Assembly: GCA_035656655.1 (NCBI GenBank) | Contig: DASRSE010000125.1 | Span: 1-48,595, forward strand | DNA: 48,595 nucleotides | Origin: Pirellulales bacterium | GTDB lineage: Bacteria > Planctomycetota > Planctomycetia > Pirellulales > DASRSE01 | Reading direction: 5' to 3' | In this document: positions 22,572 through 48,595 of the stretch, one piece after another | How the letters are laid out: every line of letters starts with the position of its first letter | Numbering within the stretch: position 1 is the first letter of the stretch | Translations under genes and position numbers: made by a program | Notes under the pieces: generated by a model | Told to the model about the DNA's origin: nothing | Seen by the model: the letters and a program-made list of their open reading frames with translations, nothing else | Databases searched by the model: none

Positions 22572-22688
22572 GAGATAACCTCCTGAGTTAGCGAATCGTG
22601 AGAAAACAGGTCCACAACACGGCGGACAGAATAAGCCGGCAAATACAATCCAAAGCGAGTTTTTTCGACCGTTGCGAAACCGCGCAGA

Positions 22689-23753: not shown

Positions 23754-24177
23754 GGAAGCACCTCCGAATCAAAGGAGTGGGATCAGAGAATCGCGCTTAA
23801 CCCAAGGTCTCTAGCCGCCAGCGACTGGAGTTGGTCCAAGCAAAGCTGCAAATACTACGCCGCGCAGCGATGCATCTTCGCCTATGAATTAGGTTTGCGC
23901 TTCGCCGCTCAAAGACGGCACATCGCAGGCCCATTCTTCGCACAAGTCTCAAACAACAGGGCGCCTTGCCGCCGAGACCCGAGTGATTTTGCCCATGCCA
24001 TCAGCCAGGCGGATTCGCGTCAAAACTGGACTCAACTACGCCAGCTTGCTTGCTGTCGGACCAGACACGACCAAAGAGCCTATTGAGAACAGCTCCAATT
24101 TGGAGTCGTCAAAAGCGCAGTGCCGCGCGCGCTTCGGACCGACTCATTACCGCGGCTCGCCGCGGTTCACTAATTGC

Positions 24178-25182
24178 ATGGGTTGGATGGAAAATCGCTT
24201 CCGACGTGGCATGGCGCTGGTAAAAAGCGTGCTTCGACCTGATATGGACCGTCTCATGGCCGCCAAAGCGCACAAAAAAACGGCCGCGGAAAAGCTTCCT
24301 GACGACGCGCCGGCCACCGACCGCGCCAAGGAGCGCGAGGCCGAAGACGAAAAATTCGTCCCGGTGATCGTGAAGCGGACGGACGAAGCGCGGCGGCACC
24401 CGGATGATACGTTGCATCAGGCGGTGAAGGATGGCCTCGAGCAACTTTATCGCGGCGGTTGGTCGTTGCTCCTTTCCGCCATTGCGGCGGGTTTAATTCT
24501 CGGGTTTACGGTCTTGTTGCTGGGGGTCATGGCGGCGGCGGCGGCGCCGCTCCACTCGCCGAGTCTGACGCGTTTGTTTACGGCGCTGGTGTATCCGATC
24601 GGCTATATCATCTGCATCCTCAGCGCCACGCAACTGTTTACCGAGCACACGGCGACGGCGGTCTATCCGGTTCTTGACCGGCGAGCGCCCGCGGCGCGGT
24701 TGCTTCGGCTCTGGGGACTCGTGATTGTCGGCAATTTGCTCGGCACGTTAGCGAGCGCCGGCCTGCTGGCGCTCGCGGAGCCGGTCGTGCAAGCCGCGCC
24801 CGGCTATTTGGAGATGGCTCATAAGGCGGTCGACGTGGCGACCGTGCCGCTTTTGGCCAGCGGAATATTGGCCGGCTGGTTGATGGCCCAGGCGGCGTGG
24901 CTCGTCAGCGCCTCGCCGCAAACCAGCGGTCAATTCATGTCAATTTACGCAGTGACCTTCGTGATTGGCGCCGGGGGACTGCATCATTCGATCGCCGGGA
25001 CGGGCGAATGGCTGACCGGCGCATTTTTGTCGAGCGAAATCACCATCGGCGCTGGGGCGCGCTTTACCGGCCTGGCCCTGGTGGGCAATTTGATTGGCGG
25101 CTCGATCTTTGTCGCGATTTTGAATTACGTCCACATCCGAGCGTCACGCGAAAATGAAGCTGCAGCGCCCAGCAGCGAGTAG
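24178..25182 (+). CDS. Formate/nitrite transporter (FNT) family channel with a charged N-terminal extension
   Basis: FNT signatures SATQLFTEHT and GGLHHSIAGTGEW, with six predicted TM helices. The start is uncertain: ATGs at 24178, 24187 and 24211, and the ORF track begins at 23983. Confidence 0.8.
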   Translation: MGWMENRFRRGMALVKSVLRPDMDRLMAAKAHKKTAAEKLPDDAPATDRAKEREAEDEKFVPVIVKRTDEARRHPDDTLHQAVKDGLEQLYRGGWSLLLSAIAAGLILGFTVLLLGVMAAAAAPLHSPSLTRLFTALVYPIGYIICILSATQLFTEHTATAVYPVLDRRAPAARLLRLWGLVIVGNLLGTLASAGLLALAEPVVQAAPGYLEMAHKAVDVATVPLLASGILAGWLMAQAAWLVSASPQTSGQFMSIYAVTFVIGAGGLHHSIAGTGEWLTGAFLSSEITIGAGARFTGLALVGNLIGGSIFVAILNYVHIRASRENEAAAPSSE

Positions 25183-25288: not shown

Positions 25289-25804
25289 TCAATCAGCCGG
25301 TCGCGGCGCGGCATTCAAAAACTCGGCCACGAGCCGTTCGACGAGCGCGACGGCCGGGTCCACCGCCGCGGCGACCACCGGGCTGAGCCCCATCCGGCCT
25401 TCTTCCGCAAGGCCAAAGTCAAACGGTTCGCAGCCGACTACGAATAGCTTTTGCACTTCGCCCCCCAGCGTCCGCACTAGGCGAAGCACTTTCAGCGGGT
25501 CCATGCTGTGTCCTTCCAGCGGAGCCAACTCCGGCGGCTCGTCGGCCATGGCCGCCAAGTCCGGCTCGATCAGATAGACCGTCCCCGGCGCGTCGCCGCG
25601 CGGGGCGGCGTCCACCAGCACCGACTGGCCATACCCGTCCATCAGCGCATAGGCGACATCAAAACCGCGAATGCCGAAATCGCAAATTCGCACGCGTGCG
25701 GGCCAAGACTTCAGCAACAAACGCCGGACCACCTCGCAGCCGAATGCGTCGTCGCCAAGAAAGAGATTGCCGATCCCTGCGATTAGAATGTGGTCAGCCA
25801 GCAT
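25289..25804 (-). CDS. Hydrogenase maturation endopeptidase (HyaD/HybD/HupD family)
   Basis: 171 aa. ILIAGIGNLFLGDDAFGCEV and the later D..H metal-ligand pattern are typical of large-subunit C-terminal proteases. Confidence 0.88.
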   Translation of the reverse strand: MLADHILIAGIGNLFLGDDAFGCEVVRRLLLKSWPARVRICDFGIRGFDVAYALMDGYGQSVLVDAAPRGDAPGTVYLIEPDLAAMADEPPELAPLEGHSMDPLKVLRLVRTLGGEVQKLFVVGCEPFDFGLAEEGRMGLSPVVAAAVDPAVALVERLVAEFLNAAPRPAD

Positions 25805-25816
25805 GGGATGGGCGAA

Positions 25817-26131
25817 CTAGCTGCCGACAACGGGCGCGACGAGTTCGACTTCCTCCAGCAAAAAGAAAAAGCGGTGGCCGATGTGCCGCATCAGCCCAAT
25901 GTCGCGCCCCGGATCGTCTTCCACCACAATCGCCAAATGAATGCGGTTTTCAAAGTCTTGTTCGATCGCCTCGACGATGCCGATCTTGTCTCGCAGAGCC
26001 AGGTCCATGATGTCGGCGTTCGCGCGAGGCTTTAGCCGGACTCGATCGCCGGCTCGAATGGCGACCCCTTGAACGAGCACGCTTTGCAACCGCGTGCGGT
26101 CGTCGGGATCGAGAAAATCAAACGGGTTCAT
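25817..26131 (-). CDS. Small conserved protein of unknown function in the hydrogenase maturation operon
   Basis: 104 aa (MNPFDFLDPDD...HRFFFLLEEVELV). Its ATG at 26129-26131 overlaps the upstream gene end by 14 nt, and its stop is 12 nt before the protease start. I recognise no catalytic motif. Confidence 0.6.
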   Translation of the reverse strand: MNPFDFLDPDDRTRLQSVLVQGVAIRAGDRVRLKPRANADIMDLALRDKIGIVEAIEQDFENRIHLAIVVEDDPGRDIGLMRHIGHRFFFLLEEVELVAPVVGS

Positions 26132-27236
26132 GGCCCCCTCCCACACGCCGCAAGCCGCGAATCGCGCCGTGCATCTTCAGCAGAAATTCTTCGGGCAAGC
26201 TCTCGGTTCGTTCGAGCATTTGCCGCGTGCGGTCGTCGAGCCCGCGCGCCTCGGCCTTTTCCGCCTCGGTGAGCGTGAGAATTCGCAACGTCAGCAGTTC
26301 GTCGTTTTCGGTGCCATCGAACAAGTCGCCCGGGCTTTCCGGAGCGATGGCCGGATAATCGTAGAGAATGATCGGCGACGCCAGCAGCAGATCGGTCCGG
26401 CCCGGCGCGCCGATCAAGACGGGCCAAACCCCATCGTTTTGACATTCCGCCGCGAGCGATTGCCACGCCGCAGGAGGTTCGAGCAACGAGATAAAGGACC
26501 CGTGTTCGACCCCTGCGACCGCGTGCGCGGAAATCAGCGAGCGGCGCAAATTCTCTTGCCGGGCGTCGCGCATTGGTACGCCGCGATTGGATGTCTCCGG
26601 CGCCGCGGATACGCCGAGGGTCTCGTTTTGCACGACGATCCGCAACGACCAGCCGTGGGGCGCGATCGGCCGCGCGGAAAGTTCGATCTTGCCGCGCAGT
26701 GCCGCCGCGCTGCGGAGAGCGAGGCCGGCGATTTCGCCCGCGCGATTGCGCAAGACTTCGCGCTGCTGTTGCTCCGCGAACTCGAAGGGGTGTTCAAGCG
26801 GCGCGCGGGTCAAATTATCGAGCTTGACGCCCGCGACGACGACCTCTCGCTCTTCCGCCTCATCCCAGGTGGCGAACGTTTGACCATCGATGACCACGGC
26901 ATCGACCGGTTCGAGCTCCGGCGTTTCGCCCGCCGCGCCGCGCACTTCCGCCAAGCCAAGCCCAACCGGGCGGCACAGTTGCCGCGTGCGGAGGTGCAAA
27001 CAACGAACGCGCAGTTCGATCTCCGTCGGAGCGGGGCGCGGAGCGGGGGCTGCGATCAAGCATTCGGCCTGAAAGACGCCTTTCAGATGCGGATCAAGCG
27101 TCTCGCTGCCGCGTGGCGACAAGACCCCAAAATTGAACCGCTGCCGATTCTTGATTGCCGAGGCGCGATACGGATAGAGGACGTAGCCTTCGTACAGCAC
27201 GGCGCGGGCAATTTGATCAGCCGGTGCGAAATTCAT
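26118..27236 (-). CDS. Conserved protein of unknown function in the hydrogenase maturation operon
   Basis: 372 aa with coding-like codon usage. ATGA overlap with the upstream gene at 27233-27236. No recognisable domain and no Cys motif. Confidence 0.65.
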   Translation of the reverse strand: MNFAPADQIARAVLYEGYVLYPYRASAIKNRQRFNFGVLSPRGSETLDPHLKGVFQAECLIAAPAPRPAPTEIELRVRCLHLRTRQLCRPVGLGLAEVRGAAGETPELEPVDAVVIDGQTFATWDEAEEREVVVAGVKLDNLTRAPLEHPFEFAEQQQREVLRNRAGEIAGLALRSAAALRGKIELSARPIAPHGWSLRIVVQNETLGVSAAPETSNRGVPMRDARQENLRRSLISAHAVAGVEHGSFISLLEPPAAWQSLAAECQNDGVWPVLIGAPGRTDLLLASPIILYDYPAIAPESPGDLFDGTENDELLTLRILTLTEAEKAEARGLDDRTRQMLERTESLPEEFLLKMHGAIRGLRRVGGGHEPV

Positions 27237-27883
27237 GACGGCGCCTCGCGGTTGGAACTGTCAAGTAGCCGCGTCAATGCTTGCTCCCAACTCGGGATCA
27301 CCTGCGCTGCCTTGTACTGCTGTAACCGCTCGAACACATCGCGCCGGACGCGGAGCCAGACGCTATTTGGGTAAAACGTGTCCATCATCTCTTGCCAGAC
27401 CGCAACCGGCATCCGGTAAGCCGCTTCCAGGTCCCACGAGATTTGCGCGATTTGCAAGGGACCGGCCGCGGAGCGATAGAAAATCGTGCCGGAAAACAAA
27501 AACGTCAACGGCACGTCTCCTCCCGCCAGCCCGTGAAAATATTTTGTCGCGGCGACATTAAAATCGAACGTGCAAGGAATCGGCAATTCGATCGTTGTTT
27601 CTTCGACAAACGAGCCGACATTCGCGAGCGCATGGGTCCATAGCAGCCGACCCAGCGTCCGGCTCCATTGATCCGGCGCGCCGAACAACTCGACCAGGTT
27701 GGCCTGCTCCGCGGGAGAATAATGGCGGCGCGTCGCTTCCAACTGCAACTGGACGCGGAGGGCGATGTTCTGAACGGGCAATTCCGGTCGCAGATTCGCG
27801 ATCCGCAGACGAAAGTTAAGCGTCGGCACCGCCGCCGCCGGATCAGCGCGAGCGCTCAAGATTTGAAAGTTTAAGTCCGGCAT
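27233..27883 (-). CDS. Conserved protein of unknown function (possibly DUF6084-like) in the hydrogenase maturation operon
   Basis: 216 aa from the ATG at 27881-27883 (MPDLNFQILSARADP...). The 89 codons further upstream in the ORF track are Arg-rich and look non-coding. The family assignment is from memory only. Confidence 0.6.
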   Translation of the reverse strand: MPDLNFQILSARADPAAAVPTLNFRLRIANLRPELPVQNIALRVQLQLEATRRHYSPAEQANLVELFGAPDQWSRTLGRLLWTHALANVGSFVEETTIELPIPCTFDFNVAATKYFHGLAGGDVPLTFLFSGTIFYRSAAGPLQIAQISWDLEAAYRMPVAVWQEMMDTFYPNSVWLRVRRDVFERLQQYKAAQVIPSWEQALTRLLDSSNREAPS

Positions 27884-27927
27884 AAGGGGCACTCTACTCG
27901 ATTCGCAGTCGCGATCGCGCTGCCAAG

Positions 27928-28743
27928 TCAAGGTTCGCCGCGTTCGCCGGGCGGCGCGGCGGTGGATGCGGAGTCGAAAGGCAAATCGCGGCCTGGACGG
28001 GCGGTTGAATGGTCGGTGGCGGCCGGCCCGCGCTCGATCTTTGCGCGGGCCGATAGTCGCGCAAAAAACTCGCGGATTCGATCCCAGACATCGCTTCCGC
28101 CCGAGAGCCCGCGCCAAAAGCTCCGCATGAGTCCCACGAGCTTGTAGCATTCGTCGATGGGCGTGATGAAATACTGCGGATCGGTAAACCCGCGCCCTGC
28201 CCCCAGCCGATTAACCAGCAAGGCTTCGACATCGGGACGAAGCGCGGCGAGCGCCGCGTTGTCATCCGCCAGGCTTTGCCACGCCTCCAGCGAGAGGAGC
28301 GATTCGGTCGCGCCCGCCGGGCTGGGATAAATGGCGACAATCCGCGCCGCCGGCACGCTGTGAAAGAAAAACGCCAGCCCAATCGGAATCTGCAAGGCGT
28401 CCCATTGGCTGTCCGTCAAACGAAAGTCGGGCAAGGCGCGGCTGTCTCGCGGCACGCGGCGATATTGAGTTCGCCCTTCGTCGTCGAACAGCAACGCGCA
28501 AGCATCGCAAACGCACACCAGCCGCCGCTCTTCCGGCTGAATCAGGTGCTGATGCTCGGAGGCCAGTCCGAGCGAACAGAGACCGCAGGTTTCCGTCGGC
28601 TTCTTGTCGAGGTTGCTCGTAAATGCCCGCAGCGCGGCCCAGGGACGCCGCGACGACGAGGGGGCGGCCTCGCCTGATGGCTCGTGGAGGCCGTCCGGCG
28701 CTTCCGGTAGCGCGATCTTGTCGAACCGATTCATTATTTCCAT
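27928..28743 (-). CDS. Cys-rich conserved protein of unknown function (possibly DUF5947-like) in the hydrogenase maturation operon
   Basis: 271 aa. Cysteine pattern ETCGLCSLG...RLVCVCDACALLF (CxxC-x22-CxCxxC). It starts 22 nt after the NifU-like gene stop. The family assignment is from memory only. Confidence 0.65.
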   Translation of the reverse strand: MEIMNRFDKIALPEAPDGLHEPSGEAAPSSSRRPWAALRAFTSNLDKKPTETCGLCSLGLASEHQHLIQPEERRLVCVCDACALLFDDEGRTQYRRVPRDSRALPDFRLTDSQWDALQIPIGLAFFFHSVPAARIVAIYPSPAGATESLLSLEAWQSLADDNAALAALRPDVEALLVNRLGAGRGFTDPQYFITPIDECYKLVGLMRSFWRGLSGGSDVWDRIREFFARLSARAKIERGPAATDHSTARPGRDLPFDSASTAAPPGERGEP

Positions 28744-34748: not shown

Positions 34749-37067
34749 ATGCCGCGGCGCAACAGTCCAAATTCCGACGGCGACTCGATGACTCCTCTTC
34801 CTTCCACTGCGAACCTCTTGGCAAAGCAACTTGTGCTGCGCGGCATCGTGCAGGGAGTCGGCTTTCGGCCGTTCGTGTTTCGCTTGGCTCAAGAGGAGGC
34901 GATTTGCGGCTGGGTTTGCAACGGCGCGACCGGCGTCGAGATTCACGCCGAAGGGGCAGAGGAAAATCTAGAGCGGTTTGTCAGCCGTCTGCAGGCCCAA
35001 GCTCCGCCGGCCGCGCAGATCGCTCGCCTCGAGGTGCAACCGAGCGCGTGGCAAGCGTACCGTGATTTTCAGATCGTCGACAGCCAACAAGCGCCGGTCC
35101 CCACCGCGCGAATCTCGCCCGATCTGAACCTATGCGCCGATTGCCGCTGCGAATTGCTCGATCCGGCGGATCGCCGGTTTCAATATCCGTACATCAATTG
35201 CACCCATTGCGGACCGCGTTATTCGATCGTGCTGCGGCTCCCCTATGACCGCGGCGCGACGACGATGGCTTCTTGGCCCTTGTGCGAGCGGTGCCGCGCC
35301 GAATATGAAAATCCGGCCAACCGCCGCTTTCATGCGCAACCGGTCGCGTGCGCCGAATGCGGGCCAAATTATCGGCTCGAAAATGGCGGTGCAACTTTGG
35401 CGCAAGGCATGCGCGCGATCGAACAAGCTGCCGCCTTGCTCCGAACGGGCCAAATCGTCGCGATCAAGGGAATCGGTGGATACCACCTCGCGTGCGCCGC
35501 GGAGAACGCGGCGGCGGTTGCCGCGCTCCGCACCCGCAAGTTTCGCAAGGAAAAGCCCTTTGCGCTGCTGGCGCGCGATTTAGCGGTCGCCAGCGGACTC
35601 GTCGAAATCGGACCGGCCGAGCAAAGCCTGCTCGAATCGCCGGCGCGGCCGATTGTGCTCTTGTGGGCCAAGCGCGAATTGCTCGGCGTGGCGCCCGATC
35701 AAGATCGGCTCGGCATCATGTTGCCCTCATCGCCGCTTCACGAGCTGCTGTTCGCGGCCGGCGCACCCGCCGCGCTGGTCCTCACCAGCGGCAATCGCTC
35801 GAACGAGCCCATTGCGTATGAGGATGACGACGCCTTGCGGCGCTTGGCAGGCATCGCGGACGCGTTTCTGGTCGGCGAACGGCCGATCGCTCGGCGAGTT
35901 GACGATTCGGTCGCGATTGTCCGTCAAGGCCGGCCGGCGCTTTTACGCCGCGCCCGCGGCTACGCCCCCGGCGCCATCGTGACGTTGCCGGCCACCGAGC
36001 CAATCTTGGCGCTGGGAAGCGATTTGAAAAACACCATCGCCCTCGTGGTGGAGGGACAAGTTTTTGTCAGCCAACACTTGGGCGACTTGGGCGAGGCCGA
36101 CGCCAACCGCGCCTTTGCCGAAACGGTTTGCGATCTGATGGCGATGTATCGAGTCTCGCCCGACAAGGTCACCGTCGTCCACGATTTACACCCGCAATTT
36201 CACTCGACTCGCTTCGCCGAGCAATTTCGTCCCTCGGCCACGCATGCCGTCCAACACCATGTGGCGCATATCGCCAGCGTGCTGGCGGAGACCGAACTGC
36301 TTCACGAACGGGTGCTGGGAGTCGCCTTCGACGGCACGGGCTATGGCTTGGATGGAACGATCTGGGGCGGCGAGTTTTTCGCTGGCGATCTGACGGCGGG
36401 GTTCAATCGGATCGCCTCCATTCGCTCGGTGAAGATGCCAGGCGGAGACGCCGCGGCTCGCCTTCCGCTCCAGGCGGCGGCCGGCTTTCTCGCGGACGGC
36501 GATGCACTGGACCAATTCGGCGCTCGGCGGCTTGAATCGATCGGACTCGCAGGCCGCTTCACACACGCGCTGGCGCTGGTCCGGCGAAACGTTCGCTGCA
36601 TTGAATCGACTTCGGTGGGGCGCTTGTTCGATGCGGTCGCCGCGATTGCCGGATTTCAGCGCGAGATCTCGTTCGAAGGACAAGCGGCGATGTGGCTGGA
36701 GCATCAAGCGCGGCAGGTCGCGCCCCAAGCGGCCTACGCTTTTCCGCGGTTCGATCATCGGCCGCTGTTCGCGGCCAGCTTGCGCGATCGACTGGAGGGA
36801 CGCAGCGCGAGTGAAATCGCCAGCGCGTTTCATGCGGCCTTGGCCGCCGCCACCGCGGACGCCGTGCAGGAGTTGGCGGCGCAGCACGGCTGCGCGACGG
36901 TCGCCCTGTCAGGCGGCGTTTTTCAAAACGAACTCTTGTGCGAACAAATCAGCGCGCTCTTAGAGACGGCCTCCTTGCGGATTGTGTTCAATTCGCTCGT
37001 CCCGGCGAATGACGGCGGAATCGCGTTGGGGCAAGCCGCTCTGATGGCGCTCCGCCGCCGGCGGTGA
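34749..37067 (+). CDS. hypF: Carbamoyltransferase HypF
   Basis: Acylphosphatase domain VQGVGFRPFV, two CxxC-x18-CxxC zinc fingers, a YrdC-like domain and a Kae1-like domain. An alternative ATG lies at 34788. Confidence 0.93.
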   Translation: MPRRNSPNSDGDSMTPLPSTANLLAKQLVLRGIVQGVGFRPFVFRLAQEEAICGWVCNGATGVEIHAEGAEENLERFVSRLQAQAPPAAQIARLEVQPSAWQAYRDFQIVDSQQAPVPTARISPDLNLCADCRCELLDPADRRFQYPYINCTHCGPRYSIVLRLPYDRGATTMASWPLCERCRAEYENPANRRFHAQPVACAECGPNYRLENGGATLAQGMRAIEQAAALLRTGQIVAIKGIGGYHLACAAENAAAVAALRTRKFRKEKPFALLARDLAVASGLVEIGPAEQSLLESPARPIVLLWAKRELLGVAPDQDRLGIMLPSSPLHELLFAAGAPAALVLTSGNRSNEPIAYEDDDALRRLAGIADAFLVGERPIARRVDDSVAIVRQGRPALLRRARGYAPGAIVTLPATEPILALGSDLKNTIALVVEGQVFVSQHLGDLGEADANRAFAETVCDLMAMYRVSPDKVTVVHDLHPQFHSTRFAEQFRPSATHAVQHHVAHIASVLAETELLHERVLGVAFDGTGYGLDGTIWGGEFFAGDLTAGFNRIASIRSVKMPGGDAAARLPLQAAAGFLADGDALDQFGARRLESIGLAGRFTHALALVRRNVRCIESTSVGRLFDAVAAIAGFQREISFEGQAAMWLEHQARQVAPQAAYAFPRFDHRPLFAASLRDRLEGRSASEIASAFHAALAAATADAVQELAAQHGCATVALSGGVFQNELLCEQISALLETASLRIVFNSLVPANDGGIALGQAALMALRRRR

Positions 37068-37172
37068 GTGGCTCGCCACGCTGAACCGCGGGCGCGTGAA
37101 CCGGGCAACCGCGTGACACGGGCGCCGTCTGTAGCCGGCGCCGTCGGCAATGGGAATGTGGCCGACACGCTC

Positions 37173-38786
37173 TCAATTCAGCGGCACGGCCTGCAGCGCT
37201 TTCTTGAGCGAATCCAAGGCGACCGGCTTGACGAGGTGCTGCGCAAACCCGGCGTCTTGGGTCCGGCGGCGGTCTTCCGGCTGACCATAGCCGCTGAGCG
37301 CGATTAAATGGACCTGAGCAAAGTCGGGATCGACGCGCAGCCGCCGCGCAAACTCGTACCCATCCATCTCGCCGGGCAGTCCCAGATCGGAGATAATCAC
37401 TTCCGGGTGCAGTTCCTTGGCGAGTTCATAGCCGCTTTTGCCGTCGTAGGCGACTTCGACCGCGTGGCCAAACAACGTCAGCAGCAATTGCATGCTTTTG
37501 GCCGTATCGCGATTGTCTTCGACGACGAGAATCCGCAATTTGCGCTCGACTTTGCCCGGCGAGCGCTGCGCGCTCTTATGGGGAATCGTCGAATTTTCCG
37601 CCAGCGGCAAGAGCACGATGAACTCGGAGCCTTGGCCTGGGCCGGCGCTTTCGGCGACAATCGAGCCGCCATGCAAATCAACCAGTCCGCGGGCCAGAGC
37701 CAAGCCGAGACCGAGGCCGCCGCGGGCTCGGTCGATCGTTTGTTCGGCCTGATTGAAGGGAATGAACAGTTGCTCCTTAACGTCGGCCTCCATGCCAATG
37801 CCGGTGTCTTTGACGCTGATACGCGCGGTCGCGCCCTCGGGCAAAGAGGCGACCTGGACGCTGACCGCGCCTTGCCGCGGCGTAAATTTGCCGGCGTTGT
37901 GCAATAGGTTGCCGATAACCTGGGCCAGACGCGTGCGATCTCCTTGCAAGAAGAGCGGATGATCGGGCAAATTCAGATCGAGTTTGATGCCGGCGCTCGA
38001 GAGCGCAGGGCGGTAGTCTTCGACCGTTTGCCGCACGATTTCGACCAAGTCCTCGCGCTGCGTGCGGAGATTCACCTTGCCGCGCGCAATCCGCGCGACG
38101 TCGAGCAAATCGTCGATCAGCCGCGCCATGTGGGCGATTTGCCGCGAAATGATTTCGCGGGCGTTGTTCAATTTGACATCGAAGCCGGCCGTGAGCCGCA
38201 GGATTTCCACGGCGTTTTGCACCGGCGCGAGGGGATTGCGCAGCTCATGCGCCAGCATCGCCAAAAAAGCATCCTTGCGACGGTCGGCCTCTTGCAGGGC
38301 GCGGGCGTATTGGCGGCTTTCCTCCAGCAGCCGCGCGTTCTCGGCCGTCGCCGCCCGCAATTCATCGCGCTGCAGCGCCACCTCTTGCCGCTGGCGATAT
38401 AAATCGAAGAAGACCTTGGCCTTGCTTTTGAGGATGTCGGGCTCGATCGGCTTGTGCAAAAAATCGACCGCGCCGGCCTCATACCCTTTGAAGCGCCGAG
38501 CGCGATCGGCCGTCCCGGCCGTGATAAAAATGATCGGCACGTGCTTCGTCCGCTCGGTGCCGCGCATGAGTTCGGCCAGTTCGAAGCCATCCATGCTGGG
38601 CATTTGCACATCCACGAGCGCCAAGGCGACATCATGTTTAAGCAACAACTCGAGCGCTTCGCGGCCGGAATTCGCCTTCAGCAGCGTCAAACCGGGCTGG
38701 CGGAGCAGGCCATCCAGCGCGAGCAGATTCTCCGGCAGGTCGTCGACCAGGAGAAAGTAGACCGGCGCGTTCGAGACAGCAATCAT
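37173..38786 (-). CDS. Hybrid histidine kinase / response regulator (REC-HisKA-HATPase-REC)
   Basis: 537 aa from the ATG at 38784-38786. N-terminal receiver (LVDVQMPSMDG), H-box LAHELRNPLAP, G-box GGLGLGLAL, C-terminal receiver (IISDLGLPGEMDG). ATGA overlap with the cheB stop. Confidence 0.88.
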   Translation of the reverse strand: MIAVSNAPVYFLLVDDLPENLLALDGLLRQPGLTLLKANSGREALELLLKHDVALALVDVQMPSMDGFELAELMRGTERTKHVPIIFITAGTADRARRFKGYEAGAVDFLHKPIEPDILKSKAKVFFDLYRQRQEVALQRDELRAATAENARLLEESRQYARALQEADRRKDAFLAMLAHELRNPLAPVQNAVEILRLTAGFDVKLNNAREIISRQIAHMARLIDDLLDVARIARGKVNLRTQREDLVEIVRQTVEDYRPALSSAGIKLDLNLPDHPLFLQGDRTRLAQVIGNLLHNAGKFTPRQGAVSVQVASLPEGATARISVKDTGIGMEADVKEQLFIPFNQAEQTIDRARGGLGLGLALARGLVDLHGGSIVAESAGPGQGSEFIVLLPLAENSTIPHKSAQRSPGKVERKLRILVVEDNRDTAKSMQLLLTLFGHAVEVAYDGKSGYELAKELHPEVIISDLGLPGEMDGYEFARRLRVDPDFAQVHLIALSGYGQPEDRRRTQDAGFAQHLVKPVALDSLKKALQAVPLN

Positions 38787-39376
38787 GAACAAGCGACCTC
38801 CTGCAAAAAGCCCGCAATTTCTCCCAGCGGCAAAACCCGCGCGCTGGGGCATGCGGCCAAGGCCGCCTCCGGCATGCCGGGAGCGTAAGCGGATTGCGGA
38901 GCTTGCACCAAAGCCAAGCCCCCCTCCGCTTGCACCTTGCGCAAGCCCGCCGCGCCGTCCTGGTTGGCGCCGGTCAGTACGACGCCGATCAGGCCGGCGC
39001 CGTAAGCGTCCGCGGCCGACTCGAACAAGACATCGACCGATGGCCGAGAGTAGTTGACGGCCTCCTCGCTGGACAACGACAACCGGTAATCGTCTTCGAC
39101 GAGCAAATGATAATCGGGCGGAGCAAAGTAAACCGTGCCGCGGACGATCGGTTCTTTGTCCTCGGCTTCTTTCACGCGGAGGTCGCACTTCGCCTGGAGC
39201 AGTTCGGCCATGAGACTATCTTTATGAGGACTGAGATGGATGACAACCAGTATCGGCAAGGGAAACTCCGGCGGCAAACTTGGCAAAATCGTCGACAGCG
39301 CTTCAAGCCCGCCAGCCGAGGTGCCGATGGCGACGGCGGCCGGCGGAATCGTCCTCCGAGGGACTCCGAGGTTCAT
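38783..39376 (-). CDS. cheB: Protein-glutamate methylesterase CheB, catalytic domain only (no receiver)
   Basis: 197 aa. Motifs GTSAGG (Ser nucleophile), VIHLSPH and PSVDVLFESAA. Confidence 0.88.
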   Translation of the reverse strand: MNLGVPRRTIPPAAVAIGTSAGGLEALSTILPSLPPEFPLPILVVIHLSPHKDSLMAELLQAKCDLRVKEAEDKEPIVRGTVYFAPPDYHLLVEDDYRLSLSSEEAVNYSRPSVDVLFESAADAYGAGLIGVVLTGANQDGAAGLRKVQAEGGLALVQAPQSAYAPGMPEAALAACPSARVLPLGEIAGFLQEVACS

Positions 39377-40200
39377 CAGTTCACTCGCTTTTGATAGATC
39401 CGCGACTCACGCGCAAATTCAGTGAAATCGGCGGCCGAACTCGTGAACCGCAGACTTTCCTTGGAACCCAAGCCGAGAAATCCTTGCCGATCGAGGGCGT
39501 CTTTGAACAGGCCAATCGCTCGATTTTGCAACTCGCGATCGAAATAGATCAATACGTTCCGACACGAGATCAACTGAACTTCCGCGAATACCGAATCGGT
39601 CACCAGACTATGATCGGAAATAACGACCCGTTGACGCAAGCTTTTGTCAAAGACCGCGGCGCCGTAGCCGGTCGAATAATAATCGGAGAGCGACGATTTG
39701 CCCCCCGCCAAGCGATGGTTCTCCGTGAATTGTTGCATGCGATCGAGTTCGTACACGCCGGCCTGCGCCCGTTCGAGCGCCTTCGGATTGATGTCGGTCG
39801 CATAAAAGATGGTCCGTTGCTCCAGCCCTTCTTCGCGAAACAAGATGACGAGCGAGTAGAGTTCTTCGCCGGCGCTGCAGCCGGCCACCCAGACCTTCAG
39901 CGACGGATACGTTCGTAAATAAGGAATCACTTGTTCGCGAATCGCCTTGAAATAGCTCGGGTCGCGAAATAATTCGCTGACCTGCACGGTCAGAAAGGAC
40001 AACAATTCGGGCAGGACGGCGGAGTCATGCAGAACTTGATCTTGCAATTGCGAGTAATTGGAACAATCAAAGCGGCGCAGCGCGTGCCGCAGCCGCCGCC
40101 GCAACGAAGCGAATGAGTAGCCCCGAAAATCGTAGTGAAACTGTTGATAGATCGCCTCCAGCAGCAGCCGAATCTCGAGTTCTTCCGTCTTGTCGCTCAT
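39376..40200 (-). CDS. cheR: Protein-glutamate O-methyltransferase CheR
   Basis: 274 aa. CheR N-terminal helical domain plus the SAM fold VWVAGCSAGEELYSL. Its stop overlaps the cheB start by 1 nt. Confidence 0.9.
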   Translation of the reverse strand: MSDKTEELEIRLLLEAIYQQFHYDFRGYSFASLRRRLRHALRRFDCSNYSQLQDQVLHDSAVLPELLSFLTVQVSELFRDPSYFKAIREQVIPYLRTYPSLKVWVAGCSAGEELYSLVILFREEGLEQRTIFYATDINPKALERAQAGVYELDRMQQFTENHRLAGGKSSLSDYYSTGYGAAVFDKSLRQRVVISDHSLVTDSVFAEVQLISCRNVLIYFDRELQNRAIGLFKDALDRQGFLGLGSKESLRFTSSAADFTEFARESRIYQKRVN

Positions 40201-40212
40201 GGCAACGCGTTT

Positions 40213-43200
40213 CTAACGAGGCATCCACACCCGCACCAGCGACAACAGCTTTTCCACGTCCAGCGGCTTCGGCATGTAGTCGTTGGCGCCGGCGGCCAGA
40301 CAGGTCTCTTGGTCGTCCTTCATCGCCTTGGCCGTCAGCATGATGATTGCCAGCTTCTTAAACTCCGGCTGAGCGCGAATTTTGCGGATCGCGGTGATCC
40401 CGTCCATCACCGGCATCATCACGTCCATCAGCACCAGATCGATCCGCTTGGCCGGGTCGGTCAGCGAATCGCGGAGCGCGTCCAAGGCCTCTTGGCCATT
40501 GCGGGCAATCTGGATGAGCGCTCCCCTGGGCTCCAGCAAACTCGTGATGGCGAATACGTTGCGCACGTCGTCTTCGACCACCAAGATGCGGCGGTCTTCG
40601 ATGGCGGCGTCGCGGCTGCGAGCCCGCTCGAGCATGCGCTGCTGTTCGGCGGGCAACTCGGCCACGACCTGATGCAGAAACAGCGTCACCTCGTCGAGCA
40701 ACCGCTCCGGCGACTTGGCTCCTTTGATAATGATCGATTTCGAATACTTGCGGAGCCGCTGTTCCTCATCCGCCGAAAGCTCGCGGCCAGTGTAGACAAT
40801 CACCGGCGGAAAGGCATACATCTCCTCGCGGCCGAGGATCTCGAGCAGGTTGTAGCCTGACGCATCGGGCAACGTTAGATCCAACACCATGCAGTCGTAC
40901 GTGGTTTCGCGCAGCCGCTGCAAGCATTCGACGGCAGTCCGCGCGCCGACCGTTTCCACGTCGTGGGAAGCCAGCAGTTTGCATAAGGCGTCCAACTGGA
41001 CGGGATCGTCCTCGACGACCAGTACGCGGCGCATCCGCTGCGCGAAATGCGACTCGAGTTGCTTGAGCGCCCCCTCCAACTCCTCACGCTTCACCGGCTT
41101 CAGCAAATAGCCAATCGCGCCCAGCGATAAGGCCGTTTCCGCGTTGTCGCTCGCGGACACGACGTGCACCGGAATATGACGCGTGCGCCGGTCGTGCTTG
41201 AGCCGGTCGAGCACTAGCAGGCCCGAATTGTCCGGCAAGCCGACATCGAGAATCACCGCGCTCGGGAGATACTGCGTCGCGATGGCGATTCCTTCTTCCG
41301 CGGTCGAGGCGAGCAAACATTGGAAATTGAGTTCGTGCGCCAGATCGTACAAAATGCGCGAAAAGGGCTCGTCGTCCTCGACAATCAGAATCACGCGACC
41401 ATTGCCGCTGAGCCGTTCGCGATCGTCGTCGACGCGGCTCAGTCGGCCGGCGCTCTTGCTCGGCCGAGCAACCCCTTTTTCTCCGGCCAGCCGCGGCGCC
41501 AGCGGCGCGTCGCCCTCGGCCCTGGGTCGATCAGGCGGCGAGACTCGGATCCGATCTTGATCGTTTGAACGCAAAATGGTCGCGTCGTAGACTTCGGGGA
41601 CGGTCACCGTGAAGGTGCTGCCGCGTCCCACCGTGCTTTCCAAATGCAAATCGCCGCCCAGCAGACGCGTCAATTGGCGCGAAATCGACAAGCCCAGCCC
41701 GGTCCCGCCAAACCGGCGGTTCGTCGTTCCTTCGACTTGCTGAAAGGCTTCGAAGACGATCCCTTGCTTGTCCTCGGGAATGCCGATGCCGGTGTCTCGA
41801 ACCGAGAAGTTGACACGCTGATCCTCGGCGGTGCGGACCGAGATCTCCACTTCGCCTTGCTCGGTGAACTTGATGGCGTTCGAGAGCAAGTTCTTGAGGA
41901 TTTGCTCTAAGCGCTGCGGGTCCGTCGTAATCTCTTGGGGCGCTTGTCCGTCGATGACCGTCTTGAGTTCCAAGCCGCGTTGATCGGCCAGCGGCTGAAA
42001 CGTCCGCGCGAGGCTCTCGAGCAGCCGCGAAATGGAAACGCTCTCCGGCCGGACCTCCATGTGGCCGGCTTCAATCTTGGAAAGGTCGAGGATGTCGTTG
42101 ATCAGCGCCAGCAAATCGTTCCCGGCGCTTTGAATGGTTTGCGCATACTGGACTTGTTCGGCCGATAAATTGCCGTTGGGATTGTCCGCTAGCAGCTTGG
42201 CCAAAATCAAGGAGGAGTTGAGCGGGGTGCGCAATTCGTGCGACATGTTCGCCAGAAAGTCGGACTTGTATTGGCTGGCCTGTTCCAGCCGCCGCGTTTG
42301 GGATTCGAGCGAACGATTGCTCCGATCGACTTCGTCTTTTTGCAACTCGAGGAGTTGTGCTTGTTCCTCAAGCTGTGCGTTGGTTTGCTCCAACTCGGCT
42401 TGTTGGTTCTCCAGCCGCGCTTGCGATTCGCGCAGCGCTCGGCTTTGCTCTTCCAATTCTTCATTGGATACGCGCAGCTCTTCGCCTTGCGTTTGCAGTT
42501 CTTCCGATTGCCGTTGGGTCTCTTCGAGGAAGTCCTGCAACTCCGTTCGATACTGAACCGCGCGAATCGCGACGCCGACGGCGTCTGAAACGCGCTCGAA
42601 CAACTCGGTCACCGCGGGAGTGAGCGGACGCAAGAAACCCAGTTCGATCACCGCGTTGGGCACCCCATCTTCGGCCACCGGCGCAATCAATAGGTGGCGC
42701 GGCTTACTGGAGCCGAGCGCCGAGCCAAAATGGAGATACCCCTCGGGCACGTCGTTGACGATAAACATCCGCCGATCCTTGATCGCCTGCCACAGCAGAC
42801 CGTCTCCCGGCGTGAGAGCTTCGGGCGTGCCGTTGGCCACGGGGACCCCGTACGTGGCGACGCGGCGATAACCCTTGTCATTGGCAAACAGGGCGCCGGC
42901 TTGGGCCCCGAGATATTCCGCCAACGTTTTGAGAACCCGTTCGCCGAGCGACTGCAATCCGGTGTCGCCAATCATGTTTTGGCTTAAGCGGATTTGGCCG
43001 GATTGAAGCCATTCCTCATGTGCCCGAGCGATGGAAGTGCGCCGCAGCAAGTACGCCACGACCAGCGACAACGCCACGCCAAGCACACCGGTTAACAGGT
43101 CGCTGGTCAAGGCCACGCTATACGACGCATCCATCTCCTTGACCCGCGCATCACGCGTGATCCGCTCCTCCTGACTCATCTCTTCGATTTCGTCGCGAAT

Positions 43201-43677
43201 GGCTTCCATGGTTAGCCGGCCTTGGTCCGTCAAGACGAACGCCTGGGCCGTCTCGAAACCCTCCTTCCGTCGGAGTTCGATCGACTTTTCGAGTTCCTTT
43301 AGTTTGTTTTCCAGGCGTGTGCGGAGCACGGGCAGATGCACCTGCTGCTTCACGTTCGCTTTCGTCAGCCGATCGACTTCCTCCAATCGTTCCTTGATTC
43401 GTGGGACGGCCATGTTGTACGGATCGAGATACCGATCCTCGCCCGTGATCACGTAGCCGCGCTGGCCCGTCTCGGCGTCCTTCGTATACGACAGAATATC
43501 GCTTAAGGCGGTGAGAACGCTATGCGTCTGCTGAACCAGCTCGCCATCGATGATCAGCGTGCGAGTGTTCAGGTACGAGACGAGTCCGCTGGCCACAAAA
43601 AAGGCGAGCATCGCTGCCAGCCCGAGAAACAGGCCGCTAGCCGTCTTGCGCGATTGAGATACCGGCTGCTCATTCAT
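40213..43677 (-). CDS. CHASE3-GAF hybrid sensor histidine kinase with three C-terminal receiver domains
   Basis: 1154 aa from the ATG at 43675-43677. A TM segment, a CHASE3-like periplasmic region (GQRGYVITGEDRYLDPY) and a second TM segment, then GAF and a long E/Q-rich coiled coil. H-box SHELRTPLN, G-box GTGLGLSI, and three REC domains (ILDVGLPDNSG, VLDLTLPDASG, LMDVMMPVMDG). Confidence 0.88.
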   Translation of the reverse strand: MNEQPVSQSRKTASGLFLGLAAMLAFFVASGLVSYLNTRTLIIDGELVQQTHSVLTALSDILSYTKDAETGQRGYVITGEDRYLDPYNMAVPRIKERLEEVDRLTKANVKQQVHLPVLRTRLENKLKELEKSIELRRKEGFETAQAFVLTDQGRLTMEAIRDEIEEMSQEERITRDARVKEMDASYSVALTSDLLTGVLGVALSLVVAYLLRRTSIARAHEEWLQSGQIRLSQNMIGDTGLQSLGERVLKTLAEYLGAQAGALFANDKGYRRVATYGVPVANGTPEALTPGDGLLWQAIKDRRMFIVNDVPEGYLHFGSALGSSKPRHLLIAPVAEDGVPNAVIELGFLRPLTPAVTELFERVSDAVGVAIRAVQYRTELQDFLEETQRQSEELQTQGEELRVSNEELEEQSRALRESQARLENQQAELEQTNAQLEEQAQLLELQKDEVDRSNRSLESQTRRLEQASQYKSDFLANMSHELRTPLNSSLILAKLLADNPNGNLSAEQVQYAQTIQSAGNDLLALINDILDLSKIEAGHMEVRPESVSISRLLESLARTFQPLADQRGLELKTVIDGQAPQEITTDPQRLEQILKNLLSNAIKFTEQGEVEISVRTAEDQRVNFSVRDTGIGIPEDKQGIVFEAFQQVEGTTNRRFGGTGLGLSISRQLTRLLGGDLHLESTVGRGSTFTVTVPEVYDATILRSNDQDRIRVSPPDRPRAEGDAPLAPRLAGEKGVARPSKSAGRLSRVDDDRERLSGNGRVILIVEDDEPFSRILYDLAHELNFQCLLASTAEEGIAIATQYLPSAVILDVGLPDNSGLLVLDRLKHDRRTRHIPVHVVSASDNAETALSLGAIGYLLKPVKREELEGALKQLESHFAQRMRRVLVVEDDPVQLDALCKLLASHDVETVGARTAVECLQRLRETTYDCMVLDLTLPDASGYNLLEILGREEMYAFPPVIVYTGRELSADEEQRLRKYSKSIIIKGAKSPERLLDEVTLFLHQVVAELPAEQQRMLERARSRDAAIEDRRILVVEDDVRNVFAITSLLEPRGALIQIARNGQEALDALRDSLTDPAKRIDLVLMDVMMPVMDGITAIRKIRAQPEFKKLAIIMLTAKAMKDDQETCLAAGANDYMPKPLDVEKLLSLVRVWMPR

Positions 43678-44260
43678 CTGCGATGGGGACCTGGCGGGAC
43701 CAGGCGACTTGTATTCGTGCGGTGGGGAAAAGCGAGGACAATCGGACTGGTCAGGCGGTAAAAAACGCGCAGCCGAAGGTTGCTCGACCGGCTGCATGGC
43801 ACGCGCGCCTACTCAAACCGGATCGCGCGGCCTCGTGAGTGTAACAAAGTTGCCGTGGTCTCAAAACAGGGCCATCGATTTGGCGAGAATGCTTCTGCTC
43901 AGTCCAGGGGAGGGACCGCTTTCGGTCCGGCTTGGCGATCGATCTTTATCATTTTTTTATTGCGAACCGTCAAACATCATGAACGTCGGTATTCCTCCCG
44001 CGGCATCAACCAGCGATCTTTGTAAGGCAAAAATTTCCGGCCGCTGGGCCGGCGTGCGAGCCGCGTCGCCCGCTCCGCTGATTGCGAAACGCTCAGACTG
44101 CGCGGCCACGGACCAAGCCGCCGCAAAGAGAGTGCGCCGCCCGGAAAAAAGAAGGAGTGTTGGAATCTTGCAAATCTGATACCATGAGTGAAAATGCAGC
44201 GCCTCGGTTGCGCTGGGCCTGTCTCCGCTCTGGCCTTAGATCCCTGGGGAATGGAGTCCA

Positions 44261-45322
44261 ATGGAACGCATGGAAGCTGTTCAACCTGCGAATTCTTCTT
44301 CGCTAGCGCCGCCCGTGCACGTGCTCTGGCTGAATGCCGGACTAAGTTGCGACGGCGATACGATCTCGATCACGGCGGCGACTCAGCCGAGCTTGGAAGA
44401 CCTCGTTCTCGGGCTGATTCCCGGCATACCCGTGCTGAATCTGCATCATCCGGTCTTGGCCTACGAAAATGGCAACGAGTTTTTAGAATCGTTTCGCCGC
44501 GCGGCGCGCGGCGAACTTGATCCATTTGTGCTCGTCGTCGAAGGTTCCATCCCTAATGAAACGATCAAGGCGGAGGGCTATTGGGCCGGTTTCGGGGCCG
44601 ACCCCTTGACGGGACAACCCATTCTGACTTGCCAATGGATCGATCGCCTCGCTCCTAAAGCTTGGGCGGTTGTCGCCATCGGCACCTGCGCCTCGTACGG
44701 CGGAATCCACGCGATGGCCGGCAACCCGACAGGCTGCATGGGCTTGCCCGACTATCTCGGCTGGACGTGGAAATCGGCGGCCGGCGTTCCGCTGGTTTGC
44801 GTGCCGGGCTGTCCCGTGCAGCCGGACAATTTCATGGAGACGCTGCTCTATTTGTTGCGGCAAGCGGGTGGAACTGCTCCGCCGATTCCGCTCGACGAGA
44901 AGTTGCGGCCGACTTGGCTATTTCAACAAACCTTGCACGAAGGATGCAACCGCGCAGGCTACTATGAGCAAGCCAATTTTGCGACCGAATATGGCGCCCC
45001 GCAGTGCATCGTAAAATTGGGATGCTGGGGTCCGGTCGTGCAGTGCAACGTCGGCAAGCGCGGCTGGATGAACGGAATTGGCGGCTGCGCCAGCGAAGGG
45101 GGCGTGTGCATCGGCTGTACGATGCCCGGCTTCCCCGACAAGTTCATGCCGTTTCTCGACGAGCCGCCGGGGGCGAAGTTGTCGACGACGGCGGTCGCCG
45201 TTTATGGCCGGACCGTCCGAGCGCTGCGCAGCTTTACGCAACACTCGATGAATCAAGAGCCGGTCTGGCGGCAGCGTTCCGCGGAGTTAACGACCGGCTA
45301 CACGTCGCCCTCCCAACCGTAG
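44261..45322 (+). CDS. hhyS: [NiFe]-hydrogenase small subunit, group 1h/5 (Hhy-type), copy 2
   Basis: 353 aa with no Tat signal. GLSCDGD, GTCASYGG and PGCPVQPDN are present, and all FeS Cys ligands of copy 1 are conserved. GGAG lies 5 nt upstream of the ATG at 44261. An alternative ATG is at 44270. Confidence 0.9.
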   Translation: MERMEAVQPANSSSLAPPVHVLWLNAGLSCDGDTISITAATQPSLEDLVLGLIPGIPVLNLHHPVLAYENGNEFLESFRRAARGELDPFVLVVEGSIPNETIKAEGYWAGFGADPLTGQPILTCQWIDRLAPKAWAVVAIGTCASYGGIHAMAGNPTGCMGLPDYLGWTWKSAAGVPLVCVPGCPVQPDNFMETLLYLLRQAGGTAPPIPLDEKLRPTWLFQQTLHEGCNRAGYYEQANFATEYGAPQCIVKLGCWGPVVQCNVGKRGWMNGIGGCASEGGVCIGCTMPGFPDKFMPFLDEPPGAKLSTTAVAVYGRTVRALRSFTQHSMNQEPVWRQRSAELTTGYTSPSQP

Positions 45323-45362
45323 CTTTCATTTTCTTCAAGCGCCTTCTCAGCCGCATTCCGCC

Positions 45363-47147
45363 ATGACTGCTCCCTTGCCTGCCGCTTCACCATCTGCCTC
45401 GAAACTGGTTGAGATGTCCTGGGATCCGATCACGCGGATCGTCGGCAGTCTCGGGATCTATACCAAGCTCGACTTCGAGCAGCGGCGCGTGGTCGAGTGC
45501 CATAGCACCTCGTCGATTTTTCGCGGCTATAGCATTTTCATGAAGGGGAAAGATCCGCGCGACGCCCATTTGATCACGAGCCGGATCTGCGGCATCTGCG
45601 GCGACAACCAAGCGACCTGTGCCGTGTACGCGCAGAATATGGCATTCGGCGTCCAGCCGCCCGCCTTGGCCGATTGGATCATCAATCTCGGCGAAGCGGC
45701 CGAGTACATGTTCGACCACAACCTCTATCAGGACAATCTGGTCGGCGTCGATTTTTGCGAGCGCATGGTCCAAGAAACGAATCCTGGCGTCCTGGCTCGG
45801 GCCGCGCAAACCGATGCGCCGCATGCCAAGCTGCACGGCTATCGGACCATCGCCGACATCATGCGAGCGCTGAATCCCTTTGAAGGGGCGTTGTATCGCG
45901 AAGCGCTGCAGATGAGCCGGCTGACCCGCGAAATGTTTTGCTTGATGGAGGGGCGGCATGTCCACCCCTCGACGCTCTACCCTGGCGGCGTCGGCACGGT
46001 GGCATCGGTTCAGCTCTTCAACGATTATCTGGTGCGGCTGCTCAAATACATCGACTTTTTGAAGCGTGTGATTCCGCTGCACGACGACCTCTTCAACTTC
46101 TTCTATGAAGCCTTGCCCGGCTATGAAGAAGTCGGACGCCGGCGCGTGCTGCTGGCTTGCTTCGGCTCGTTCAACGACCCGGCAGTCTGCGACTATCGCT
46201 ATGCATCGATGAGCCAGTGGGGACGAGCCATGTTTGTGACGCCAGGCATCGTCGTCGATGGCGAGCTGATCACGACCGACTTGGTCGAAATCAATCTCGG
46301 CATTCGCATTCTCGTGAACAGCTCGTTCTATGACGATTGGCAAGATCAGGATCGCTTCGTTTCGGTCGATCCGCTCGGCAATCGCGTCGACCCGCGTCAC
46401 CCCTGGAATCAAACGACCATTCCGCGGCCGCAAAAGCGCAATTTTTCCGACAAGTATAGTTGGGTGATGTCGCCGCGGTGGTTCAATCGTCGCACCGGAG
46501 AGCATCTCGCGCTCGACACGGGAGGCGGCCCGCTGGCCCGGTTTTGGGTGACCGCGCTGGCCAACAAGGTTCGCTTGAATCACGTCCAAGCCACCGGTCA
46601 CAGCGTGAAAATTCAACTGCCGAAGACCGCTTCGTTTCCCGAGATGGAACTTGAATGGCAGATTCCGAAATGGAGCAACGCCCTCGAACGCGACCGGGCG
46701 CGAACTTATTTTCAGGCGTATGCGGCCGCCGCCGCACTCGATTTTCTCGAGCGCGCCATGGCCGAAGTCCACGCCGGCCGCACGAACACCTGGTCCGCCT
46801 TCAAAGTGCCCGACGAAGCGATCGCGTGCGGCTTTCATGAGGCGGTCCGCGGCGTCTTGTCGCATCATGTGGTCATTCGCGAAGGCAAGATCGCGAACTA
46901 CCATCCTTATCCGCCCACGCCGTGGAACGCCAGCCCGCGCGATCCGTATGGAACCGCCGGACCGTACGAGGACGCAGTCCAAAACACGCCCATTTTTGAA
47001 GAGAATGGCCCGGACCAGTTCAAAGGGATCGATATCATGCGGACCGTCCGCAGTTTTGATCCGTGCCTGCCGTGCGGGGTGCACATGTATCTAGGGAACG
47101 GAAAAACGCTCGAAGCGCATCAGTCGCCGACCTTTGGCCGTTCTTAG
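45363..47147 (+). CDS. hhyL: [NiFe]-hydrogenase large subunit, group 1h/5 (Hhy-type), copy 2, with a variant L1 motif
   Basis: 594 aa. L1 is TSRICGICGDNQATC (Gln codon CAA at 45609-45611, where copy 1 has His). L2 is SFDPCLPCGVHMY plus a C-terminal tail. Confidence 0.9.
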   Translation: MTAPLPAASPSASKLVEMSWDPITRIVGSLGIYTKLDFEQRRVVECHSTSSIFRGYSIFMKGKDPRDAHLITSRICGICGDNQATCAVYAQNMAFGVQPPALADWIINLGEAAEYMFDHNLYQDNLVGVDFCERMVQETNPGVLARAAQTDAPHAKLHGYRTIADIMRALNPFEGALYREALQMSRLTREMFCLMEGRHVHPSTLYPGGVGTVASVQLFNDYLVRLLKYIDFLKRVIPLHDDLFNFFYEALPGYEEVGRRRVLLACFGSFNDPAVCDYRYASMSQWGRAMFVTPGIVVDGELITTDLVEINLGIRILVNSSFYDDWQDQDRFVSVDPLGNRVDPRHPWNQTTIPRPQKRNFSDKYSWVMSPRWFNRRTGEHLALDTGGGPLARFWVTALANKVRLNHVQATGHSVKIQLPKTASFPEMELEWQIPKWSNALERDRARTYFQAYAAAAALDFLERAMAEVHAGRTNTWSAFKVPDEAIACGFHEAVRGVLSHHVVIREGKIANYHPYPPTPWNASPRDPYGTAGPYEDAVQNTPIFEENGPDQFKGIDIMRTVRSFDPCLPCGVHMYLGNGKTLEAHQSPTFGRS

Positions 47148-47390
47148 CACGGGCACGACCGGCGCCGTTCGCGCCGCCGGCACGCGGCGCGGCGAACCCG
47201 CTCACGCCGAATCCGCAGTCGGGGTGGCGGTTGCCGCTCCGGTTGTGCGCGTGGTAGCGGTTGTGTCGGCGGCGCGTCCGCCCAAACGCGCGCTTCGCAG
47301 GCGGCGTGGCACGCCGCCAAGCCATCGCCGCGCCGAAAAACCTAAGCTTGCGAACCTGCCCCCCGCCCCGTGACCCCGCCCACCTTTGCC

Positions 47391-48595
<1,205 letters not shown>

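Follow-up and report, generated by a model that had tools for sequence, protein, structure and literature searches.

A CheR/CheB-containing sensor kinase cassette of the cfcABCDE/RsbKM type in a Pirellulales bacterium, with the signalling helix of its hybrid kinase as probable methylation target

Introduction

Gene cassettes in which enzymes of the CheR and CheB families accompany a sensor kinase have been described in Pseudomonas, and a kinase with a CheR-type partner in Bacillus cereus. In Pseudomonas putida KT2440, PP_3761 encodes CfcA, a CHASE3/GAF hybrid kinase and the first gene of cfcABCDE; the phospho-accepting histidine of CfcA is a requirement for CfcR, a diguanylate cyclase, and the closest paralogue of the CfcR receiver in this organism is the receiver of CfcD (PMC4951495). 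According to the same report, cfcB and cfcC encode CheR and CheB, and a chemotaxis role was ruled out for CfcB/C. P. brassicacearum and P. alkylphenolica, the latter with BmsA, have been noted to possess the same four genes (PMC8175716). A further report, citing Tagua 2022, links CfcA to salt sensing, and the cue of CHASE3 in relatives to salt or ionic strength (PMC10950880). In B. cereus, the kinase RsbK has the architecture CHASE3-HAMP-GAF-S-helix-HK-REC, and the adjacent CheR-type RsbM, which has no paired esterase, methylates the signalling helix of RsbK, as demonstrated in vitro with 14C-labelled S-adenosylmethionine (SAM), by which the kinase is held off; RsbK-like kinases occur in ten phyla (PMC4574943). 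Here, we analysed an operon of this type, encoding a hybrid histidine kinase (HK1), CheR, CheB, and a second kinase (HK2), on contig DASRSE010000125.1 of a Pirellulales bacterium (GCA_035656655.1), the 48,595 nucleotides of which are referred to as the window.

A first-pass annotation, made from the DNA alone, had proposed that the substrate of CheR and CheB is one of the two kinases, so that methylation tunes a phosphorelay. The core of this proposal held, and the heptads of HK1, the occurrence of the cassette in genomes without methyl-accepting chemotaxis proteins (MCPs), and the RsbK/RsbM precedent point to HK1 as the kinase concerned. Its novelty did not hold: the operon is a signalling cassette of the already known cfcABCDE/RsbKM type, to which this copy contributes one more member but no new concept. 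From sequence and from analogy with the described systems, we consider it probable that CheR and CheB modify the Glu-rich signalling helix of HK1 and thereby tune a phosphorelay.

Gene organisation and comparison with described systems

As read from the list of open reading frames (ORFs) and the translations, the four genes are packed tightly on the minus strand (37173-43677). HK1 (40213..43677, -), a membrane hybrid histidine kinase of 1154 amino acids with its ATG at 43677, is followed by cheR (39376..40200, -; 274 amino acids, Pfam CheR_N and CheR), encoding a SAM-dependent protein-glutamate methyltransferase, by cheB (38783..39376, -; 197 amino acids, Pfam CheB_methylest), encoding a methylesterase/deamidase catalytic domain alone, and by HK2 (37173..38786, -; 537 amino acids, Pfam), encoding a cytoplasmic REC-HisKA-HATPase-REC kinase. 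Reading of the junctions gave TAG, 12 nt, and ATG between HK1 and cheR, TGATG with a 1-nt overlap between cheR and cheB, and ATGA with a 4-nt overlap between cheB and HK2. ORFs, translations, junctions, and Pfam domains thus reproduced exactly the four-gene minus-strand layout, with its gap and overlaps, that had been claimed. An in-frame ATG at 43797, upstream of the HK1 start, would give an alternative product of 1194 amino acids (+40); the 1154-residue form is the call in an independent JGI assembly. Residue numbers of HK1 given below follow the 1194-residue numbering.

The locus shares its gene order and domain architectures with cfcABCDE, the CheR proteins being 55-57% identical, and heptads that begin with Glu-Glu-Leu (EEL) precede the H-box in the Pseudomonas cassette kinases as well. 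From end to end, HK1 is 46-47% identical to cassette kinases of the P. putida group and 33-35% identical to RsbK-like kinases of Bacillaceae/Paenibacillus. HK2, with the Pfam order Response_reg, HisKA, HATPase_c, Response_reg, is the counterpart of P. putida CfcD, from which it differs by an extra C-terminal receiver. Furthermore, there is no fifth gene here, whereas in Pseudomonas loci (e.g., L039) the second kinase is followed by a small receiver gene, and the known Pseudomonas output is CfcR, whereas the setting here is a hydrogenase island. Common to this locus and RsbK/RsbM are a CHASE3-(HAMP)-GAF-helix-HK-REC kinase and an adjacent CheR-type enzyme, and the Bacillaceae/Paenibacillus kinases share the heptads. 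However, RsbK, which has a single receiver, passes its signal to the PP2C phosphatase RsbY (sigma-B), whereas HK1 has three receivers and is accompanied by a second kinase. No esterase is paired with RsbM, whereas this cassette includes CheB, by which its modification should be reversible.

With canonical chemotaxis systems the cassette has in common the enzyme families and the occurrence, on a coiled coil, of Glu-Glu pairs at seven-residue spacing. The methylation consensus of MCPs is Glu-Glu-x-x-Ala-Ser/Thr, to which the candidate sites of HK1 are loosely similar. In contrast to those systems, operon and window contain no MCP, CheA, or CheW, the CheB protein is without the receiver needed for coupling to CheA, and a HisKA-type kinase takes the place of the MCP as proposed substrate. 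BLAST searches with MCP-signal, CheW, and CheA queries gave no match among all ORFs of the window, in agreement with the first-pass annotation, and one complete che set is encoded elsewhere in the genome. The absence of a receiver from CheB was likewise borne out, CheB_methylest being the sole Pfam domain of the 197-residue protein.

The signalling helix of HK1

According to Pfam, HK1 consists of a transmembrane segment, a periplasmic CHASE3 domain, a second transmembrane segment, GAF, a helix of approximately 100 residues, HisKA, HATPase_c, and three receivers; the CHASE3 domain is flanked by two hydrophobic segments. The helix between GAF and the H-box (42268..42558, -), delimited in an alignment of 70 cassette kinases, is a coiled-coil signalling helix and the proposed methyl-accepting segment. 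Its sequence before the H-box reads EELQTQG-EELRVSN-EELEEQ, in which the three consecutive heptads EELQTQG-EELRVSN-EEL (42454..42504, -), found in a genome-wide motif scan, are the best candidate methylation sites. The codon of the phospho-accepting His, located from the alignment in the H-box SHELRTP, lies at 42238..42240 (-). The scan covered six-frame ORFs of at least 150 amino acids in the whole 4.7 Mb genome and required at least three [EQ][EQ]L heptads. It returned two matches, namely HK1 and a CheB-CheR fusion protein on contig C48; both therefore adjoin, or are fused to, CheR/CheB. A check of both kinases for such heptads, as the first-pass annotation had suggested, gave three EEL heptads in HK1, and HK2 was without the motif.

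Alignment of the helix-DHp segments of the 70 kinases gave the consensus LLEETQxQxEELQxQQEELxxxNEELEEQ, followed by QQEELxQTNEELEE, with near-invariant positions at E433, L434, Q437, E440, L441, N445, E447, L448, Q465, E468, L469, N473, and L476. The best-conserved residue was the second Glu of the EE pairs (E433 in 61 of 70 rows, E440 and E468 in 67 each), and the Leu and Asn residues of the heptads were likewise nearly invariant; one pair position alternated between Glu and Gln in a ratio of 36:25. We infer that the core of a parallel coiled coil would be built from Leu and Asn, given their four-residue spacing, with the Glu pairs facing the solvent. A second block of near-invariance surrounds the phospho-His (window 42190-42260, -), starts with YKS(E/D), and is retained in cassette kinases of more than 10 phyla, being far more conserved than the remainder of the kinase. 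A structure prediction for CheR with two copies of the helix-DHp segment of HK1 scored 0.18 against a mark of 0.32, which is evidence for neither side.

Distribution of the cassette

A search among 50%-identity clusters gave 917 representatives of the cassette CheR subfamily at E<=1e-30, and a profile scan of the cassette CheR with one genome per species yielded 80 loci. These were distributed over Planctomycetes, Alpha-, Beta-, and Gammaproteobacteria (including Pseudomonas and Stutzerimonas), Verrucomicrobia, Bdellovibrionales, Gemmatimonadetes, Desulfobacteraceae, Cyanobacteria, Bacteroidota, Bacillaceae/Paenibacillus, Pyrinomonadaceae, Deinococcus, and Polyangiaceae. A GAF/signalling-helix kinase was encoded beside CheR on the same strand in 70 loci, CheB was present in 64, and a REC-first kinase followed cheB or cheR in most. 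Seven of the ten loci without an adjacent helix kinase were at contig ends, while the remaining three were real absences within 10 kb. Within the phylum of the window, the cassette CheR was found in 8 of 201 genomes (best identity 67%), and all seven in-phylum loci kept the order GAF-helix kinase, CheR, (CheB), REC-first kinase. The four-gene order that the first-pass annotation had put forward for a survey is thus kept in the seven in-phylum loci, its core of helix kinase and CheR extends to 70 of the 80 wider loci, and hydrogenase genes are missing from the fetched flanks. The patchy distribution of the cassette suggests horizontal spread.

The heptads followed the kinase adjacent to CheR. 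At least two consecutive heptads were present in all 70 adjacent kinases as well as in HK1 of the window, and at least three in 48 of these 71, compared with two heptads in one, and at least three in none, of the 81 other kinases of the same loci. The Firmicute cassettes that comprise only the kinase and CheR retained the motif. L148, a CHASE3-GAF kinase locus without CheR nearby, was considered as a control and rejected because PAS domains precede the H-box of the kinase.

No CheW or CheA gene was detected in any of the 80 cassette loci, and two of them contained an MCP gene, encoded on the opposite strand at a distance of kilobases. Five Bacteroidota genomes (Chryseobacterium takakiae, two Flavobacterium, Sphingobacterium sp., and Sediminibacterium goheungense) contained the cassette and one to three CheR genes each but gave no MCPsignal match, so that the cassette enzymes cannot serve chemoreceptors there. 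Fusions within the CheR subfamily comprised CheR-CheB in both orders, CheR-REC-GGDEF-EAL, and CheR-CheB-REC (proteins P0174, P0159, P0151, and P0155), and a CheB-REC-PAS-HK fusion was encoded by an uncultured Sericytochromatia metagenome-assembled genome (MAG; L059:8985-11429, +). Such fusions connect the enzymes with partners of the phosphorelay and, in one instance, with a cyclic di-GMP output.

CheR, CheB, and HK2

In the cassette CheR, the SAM-binding and CRNVLIYF motifs align with solved CheR structures. Its best database matches were 71-79% identical, those with names belonging mainly to Planctomycetes, whereas its identity to the two other CheR domains of the genome was 27-30%, which is also the range of identity among all three. 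The CheB_methylest domain covers residues 15-190 of 197, and the motifs GTSAGG (Ser), IHLSP (His), and NQDG (Asp) align with solved CheB structures, the Ser, His, and Asp residues matching the catalytic triad of CheB. The catalytic motifs of both enzymes thus appear intact. Acidic pocket residues were found, by direct reading of the translations, in all five receivers of HK1 and HK2.

Weighing the substrate

The alternative that CheR and CheB modify another component than the HK1 helix, be it HK2, a receiver, or an unlinked protein, is unlikely. The REC-first kinases of the HK2 type are nearly as constant in the cassettes as HK1, the fusion in L059 joins CheB to a receiver and a kinase, and binding of CheR to the HK1 helix is presumed. 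However, three heptads occur in none of the 81 kinases, HK2 and others, that share these loci with the helix kinases; the motif is kept where the cassette is reduced to the kinase and CheR, as in the Firmicutes; and the element methylated in B. cereus is the signalling helix of an HK1-like kinase (PMC4574943).

Modification of the HK1 helix is therefore the preferred reading, and several observations weigh against it. In L021, L051, and L056, the cassette CheR has full 10-kb flanks and no adjacent signalling-helix kinase. Gln at the candidate sites does not track CheB, position 475 being Gln in 21 of the 55 rows that have CheB and in 4 of the 15 that lack it. P. putida cfc mutants other than cfcA stayed crinkly, according to unpublished work cited in PMC4951495, which implies that this output can do without the enzymes. 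No paper in the literature searched demonstrated that methyl groups are added to or removed from the kinase of a CheB-containing cassette, HK1 included. Finally, the MAG is 84.5% complete (4.7 Mb, 345 contigs), and further MCPs may therefore exist. With respect to the three loci lacking a helix kinase, L021 and L051 also carry CheB and a second kinase, and a partner kinase may be encoded elsewhere in the genomes of all three.

Proposed mechanism

In the mechanism that we propose, the CHASE3 domain of HK1 would sense a periplasmic cue, and its GAF domain possibly a cytoplasmic one, and the signalling helix of HK1, as a dimer, would relay the signal to the kinase core. CheR would methylate exposed glutamates of the EEL heptads and the receiver-less CheB would remove the methyl groups, the methylation state shifting the on/off bias of HK1 as it does in chemoreceptors. 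Because CheB has no receiver, feedback would have to rest on an accessibility of the sites that varies with conformation, or on association with HK2. Phosphoryl groups would pass to the receivers of HK1 itself and, by analogy with CfcD, probably to the first receiver of HK2 as a second tier. Separate Hpt candidates, which are encoded in the genome, could carry the signal onward to a final output regulator that would be encoded elsewhere. The methylation of HK1 and its sites, the role of CheB, and the route of phosphotransfer are all inferred. A CfcR-like regulator was sought as a close paralogue of the first HK2 receiver, and none was present in the 84.5%-complete MAG, the best match (40% identity) lying inside another hybrid kinase.

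The hydrogenase island

The cassette is flanked by hypF (34749-37067, +), which is convergent with it, and by a divergent pair of [NiFe]-hydrogenase small- and large-subunit genes (hhySL2; 44261-47147, +). A second assembly (JGI) of the same population showed the same eight-gene arrangement, with the cassette beside the hydrogenase pair, and the adjacency is therefore not due to misassembly. The region between HK1 and the small-subunit gene hhyS2 (43678..44260; 583 bp) is non-coding and presumably contains the operon promoter; a simple scan of 36900-44400 found no sigma-70-like site, although sigma-70 may not be the promoter type of this host.

The first-pass annotation had named the island as a plausible output, which the comparison with other loci did not support. 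That the cassette is functionally tied to the island, by controlling hhySL2 and the hyp genes or by sensing their activity, is suggested by its position between hypF and hhyS2, by the divergent region that HK1 and hhyS2 share, and by the recurrence of the arrangement in the second assembly. Nevertheless, we regard this tie as very unlikely. Hydrogenase genes or hypF were absent from the fetched flanks of all 87 other cassette loci, and none of 80 metagenomic loci with large subunits of 76-83% identity contained CheR or CheB (any kinase in four), so that the hydrogenase was rejected as a conserved neighbour of the cassette. Moreover, the operon encodes no DNA-binding output, and both elements are rare in the phylum (the cassette in 8 of 201 genomes, this hydrogenase type in 2 of 401), so that their adjacency may reflect co-located acquired DNA. 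The adjacency is thus real but not conserved, and the island is a neighbour rather than a demonstrated output. The stronger proposition, that reversible CheR/CheB methylation makes the kinase truly adapting and that this kinase was co-opted for controlling, or for reading out, the second atmospheric-type hydrogenase, whose divergent control region it shares, is just as improbable.

Further genes of the island were noted. The window has two small/large hydrogenase pairs in inverted orientation (20769-23753, -; 44261-47147, +), the large subunits of which are 77% identical. A gene of the formate/nitrite-transporter family (23983-25182, +) lies beside the first pair, and a hyp block (25289-28743, -) contains genes for DUF5947 and DUF6084 proteins and a HycI-type maturation protease. 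A PAS-PAS-HisKA kinase (47370-48595, +), cut by the end of the window, starts 223 nt after the large-subunit gene of the second pair. In L156, a related metagenomic locus, a kinase likewise lies immediately 3' of the large-subunit gene, as this PAS kinase does, and is not a cassette kinase.

Other che genes in the genome

The MAG contains three CheR/CheB sets, namely a canonical che cluster, the CheB-CheR fusion, and the cassette. The canonical cluster is split over two contigs, C314 (L012:10202-13658) and C334 (L011:11784-15797), apparently by a contig break. CheA (Hpt, dimerisation domain, HATPase, and two CheW domains) is encoded at the end of C314, together with CheW and a PAS fragment. 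The first gene of C334 is that of a PAS-MCP, its 5' end being open, and the genes for CheY, REC-CheB, and CheR come next; it is probable that the contigs join at these ends. The sole MCP detected in the MAG thus has its own CheY, REC-CheB, and CheR alongside, with CheA and CheW on another contig.

The CheB-CheR fusion (1078 amino acids; contig C48, 6540-9776, +; L013:6540-9776) continues into a coiled coil, PAS_10, and PAS. Directly behind the CheR domain and ahead of PAS_10/PAS lies a run of six consecutive EEL heptads (STEELKASNEELQAMNEELRSATEELETSREELQSINEEL), which suggests a built-in substrate helix. The fusion differs from the cassette in that enzymes and helix are united in one polypeptide without a kinase core, and its CheR domain shares 30% identity with that of the cassette. 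An ORF of 459 amino acids with a receiver (9811-11190) lies 3' of the fusion gene.

The remaining alternative, that the cassette CheR and CheB are an extra adaptation system for the chemoreceptor(s) of the genome and stand in the operon by chance, is barely credible: CheR and CheB are classically MCP enzymes, and this incomplete MAG does encode an MCP, CheA, and CheW, but that MCP has its own adjoining REC-CheB and a CheR to which the cassette CheR is 27% identical, the cassette is present in five genomes without an MCP domain, and P. putida CfcB/C were excluded from chemotaxis, as PMC4951495 states with reference to Garcia-Fontana 2013.

Implications for CheR/CheB substrates

The principle that a CheR-type enzyme can act on a sensor kinase was established earlier for RsbK/RsbM of B. 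cereus, and the gene cluster has been named in Pseudomonas. Together with these precedents, the cassette, which occurs even in bacteria without chemoreceptors, points to ordinary sensor kinases as a second widespread class of likely CheR/CheB substrates. The CheB-containing form of the cassette may provide a reversible, adaptation-like tuning of the kinase, for which the conserved EEL heptads offer precise candidate residues.

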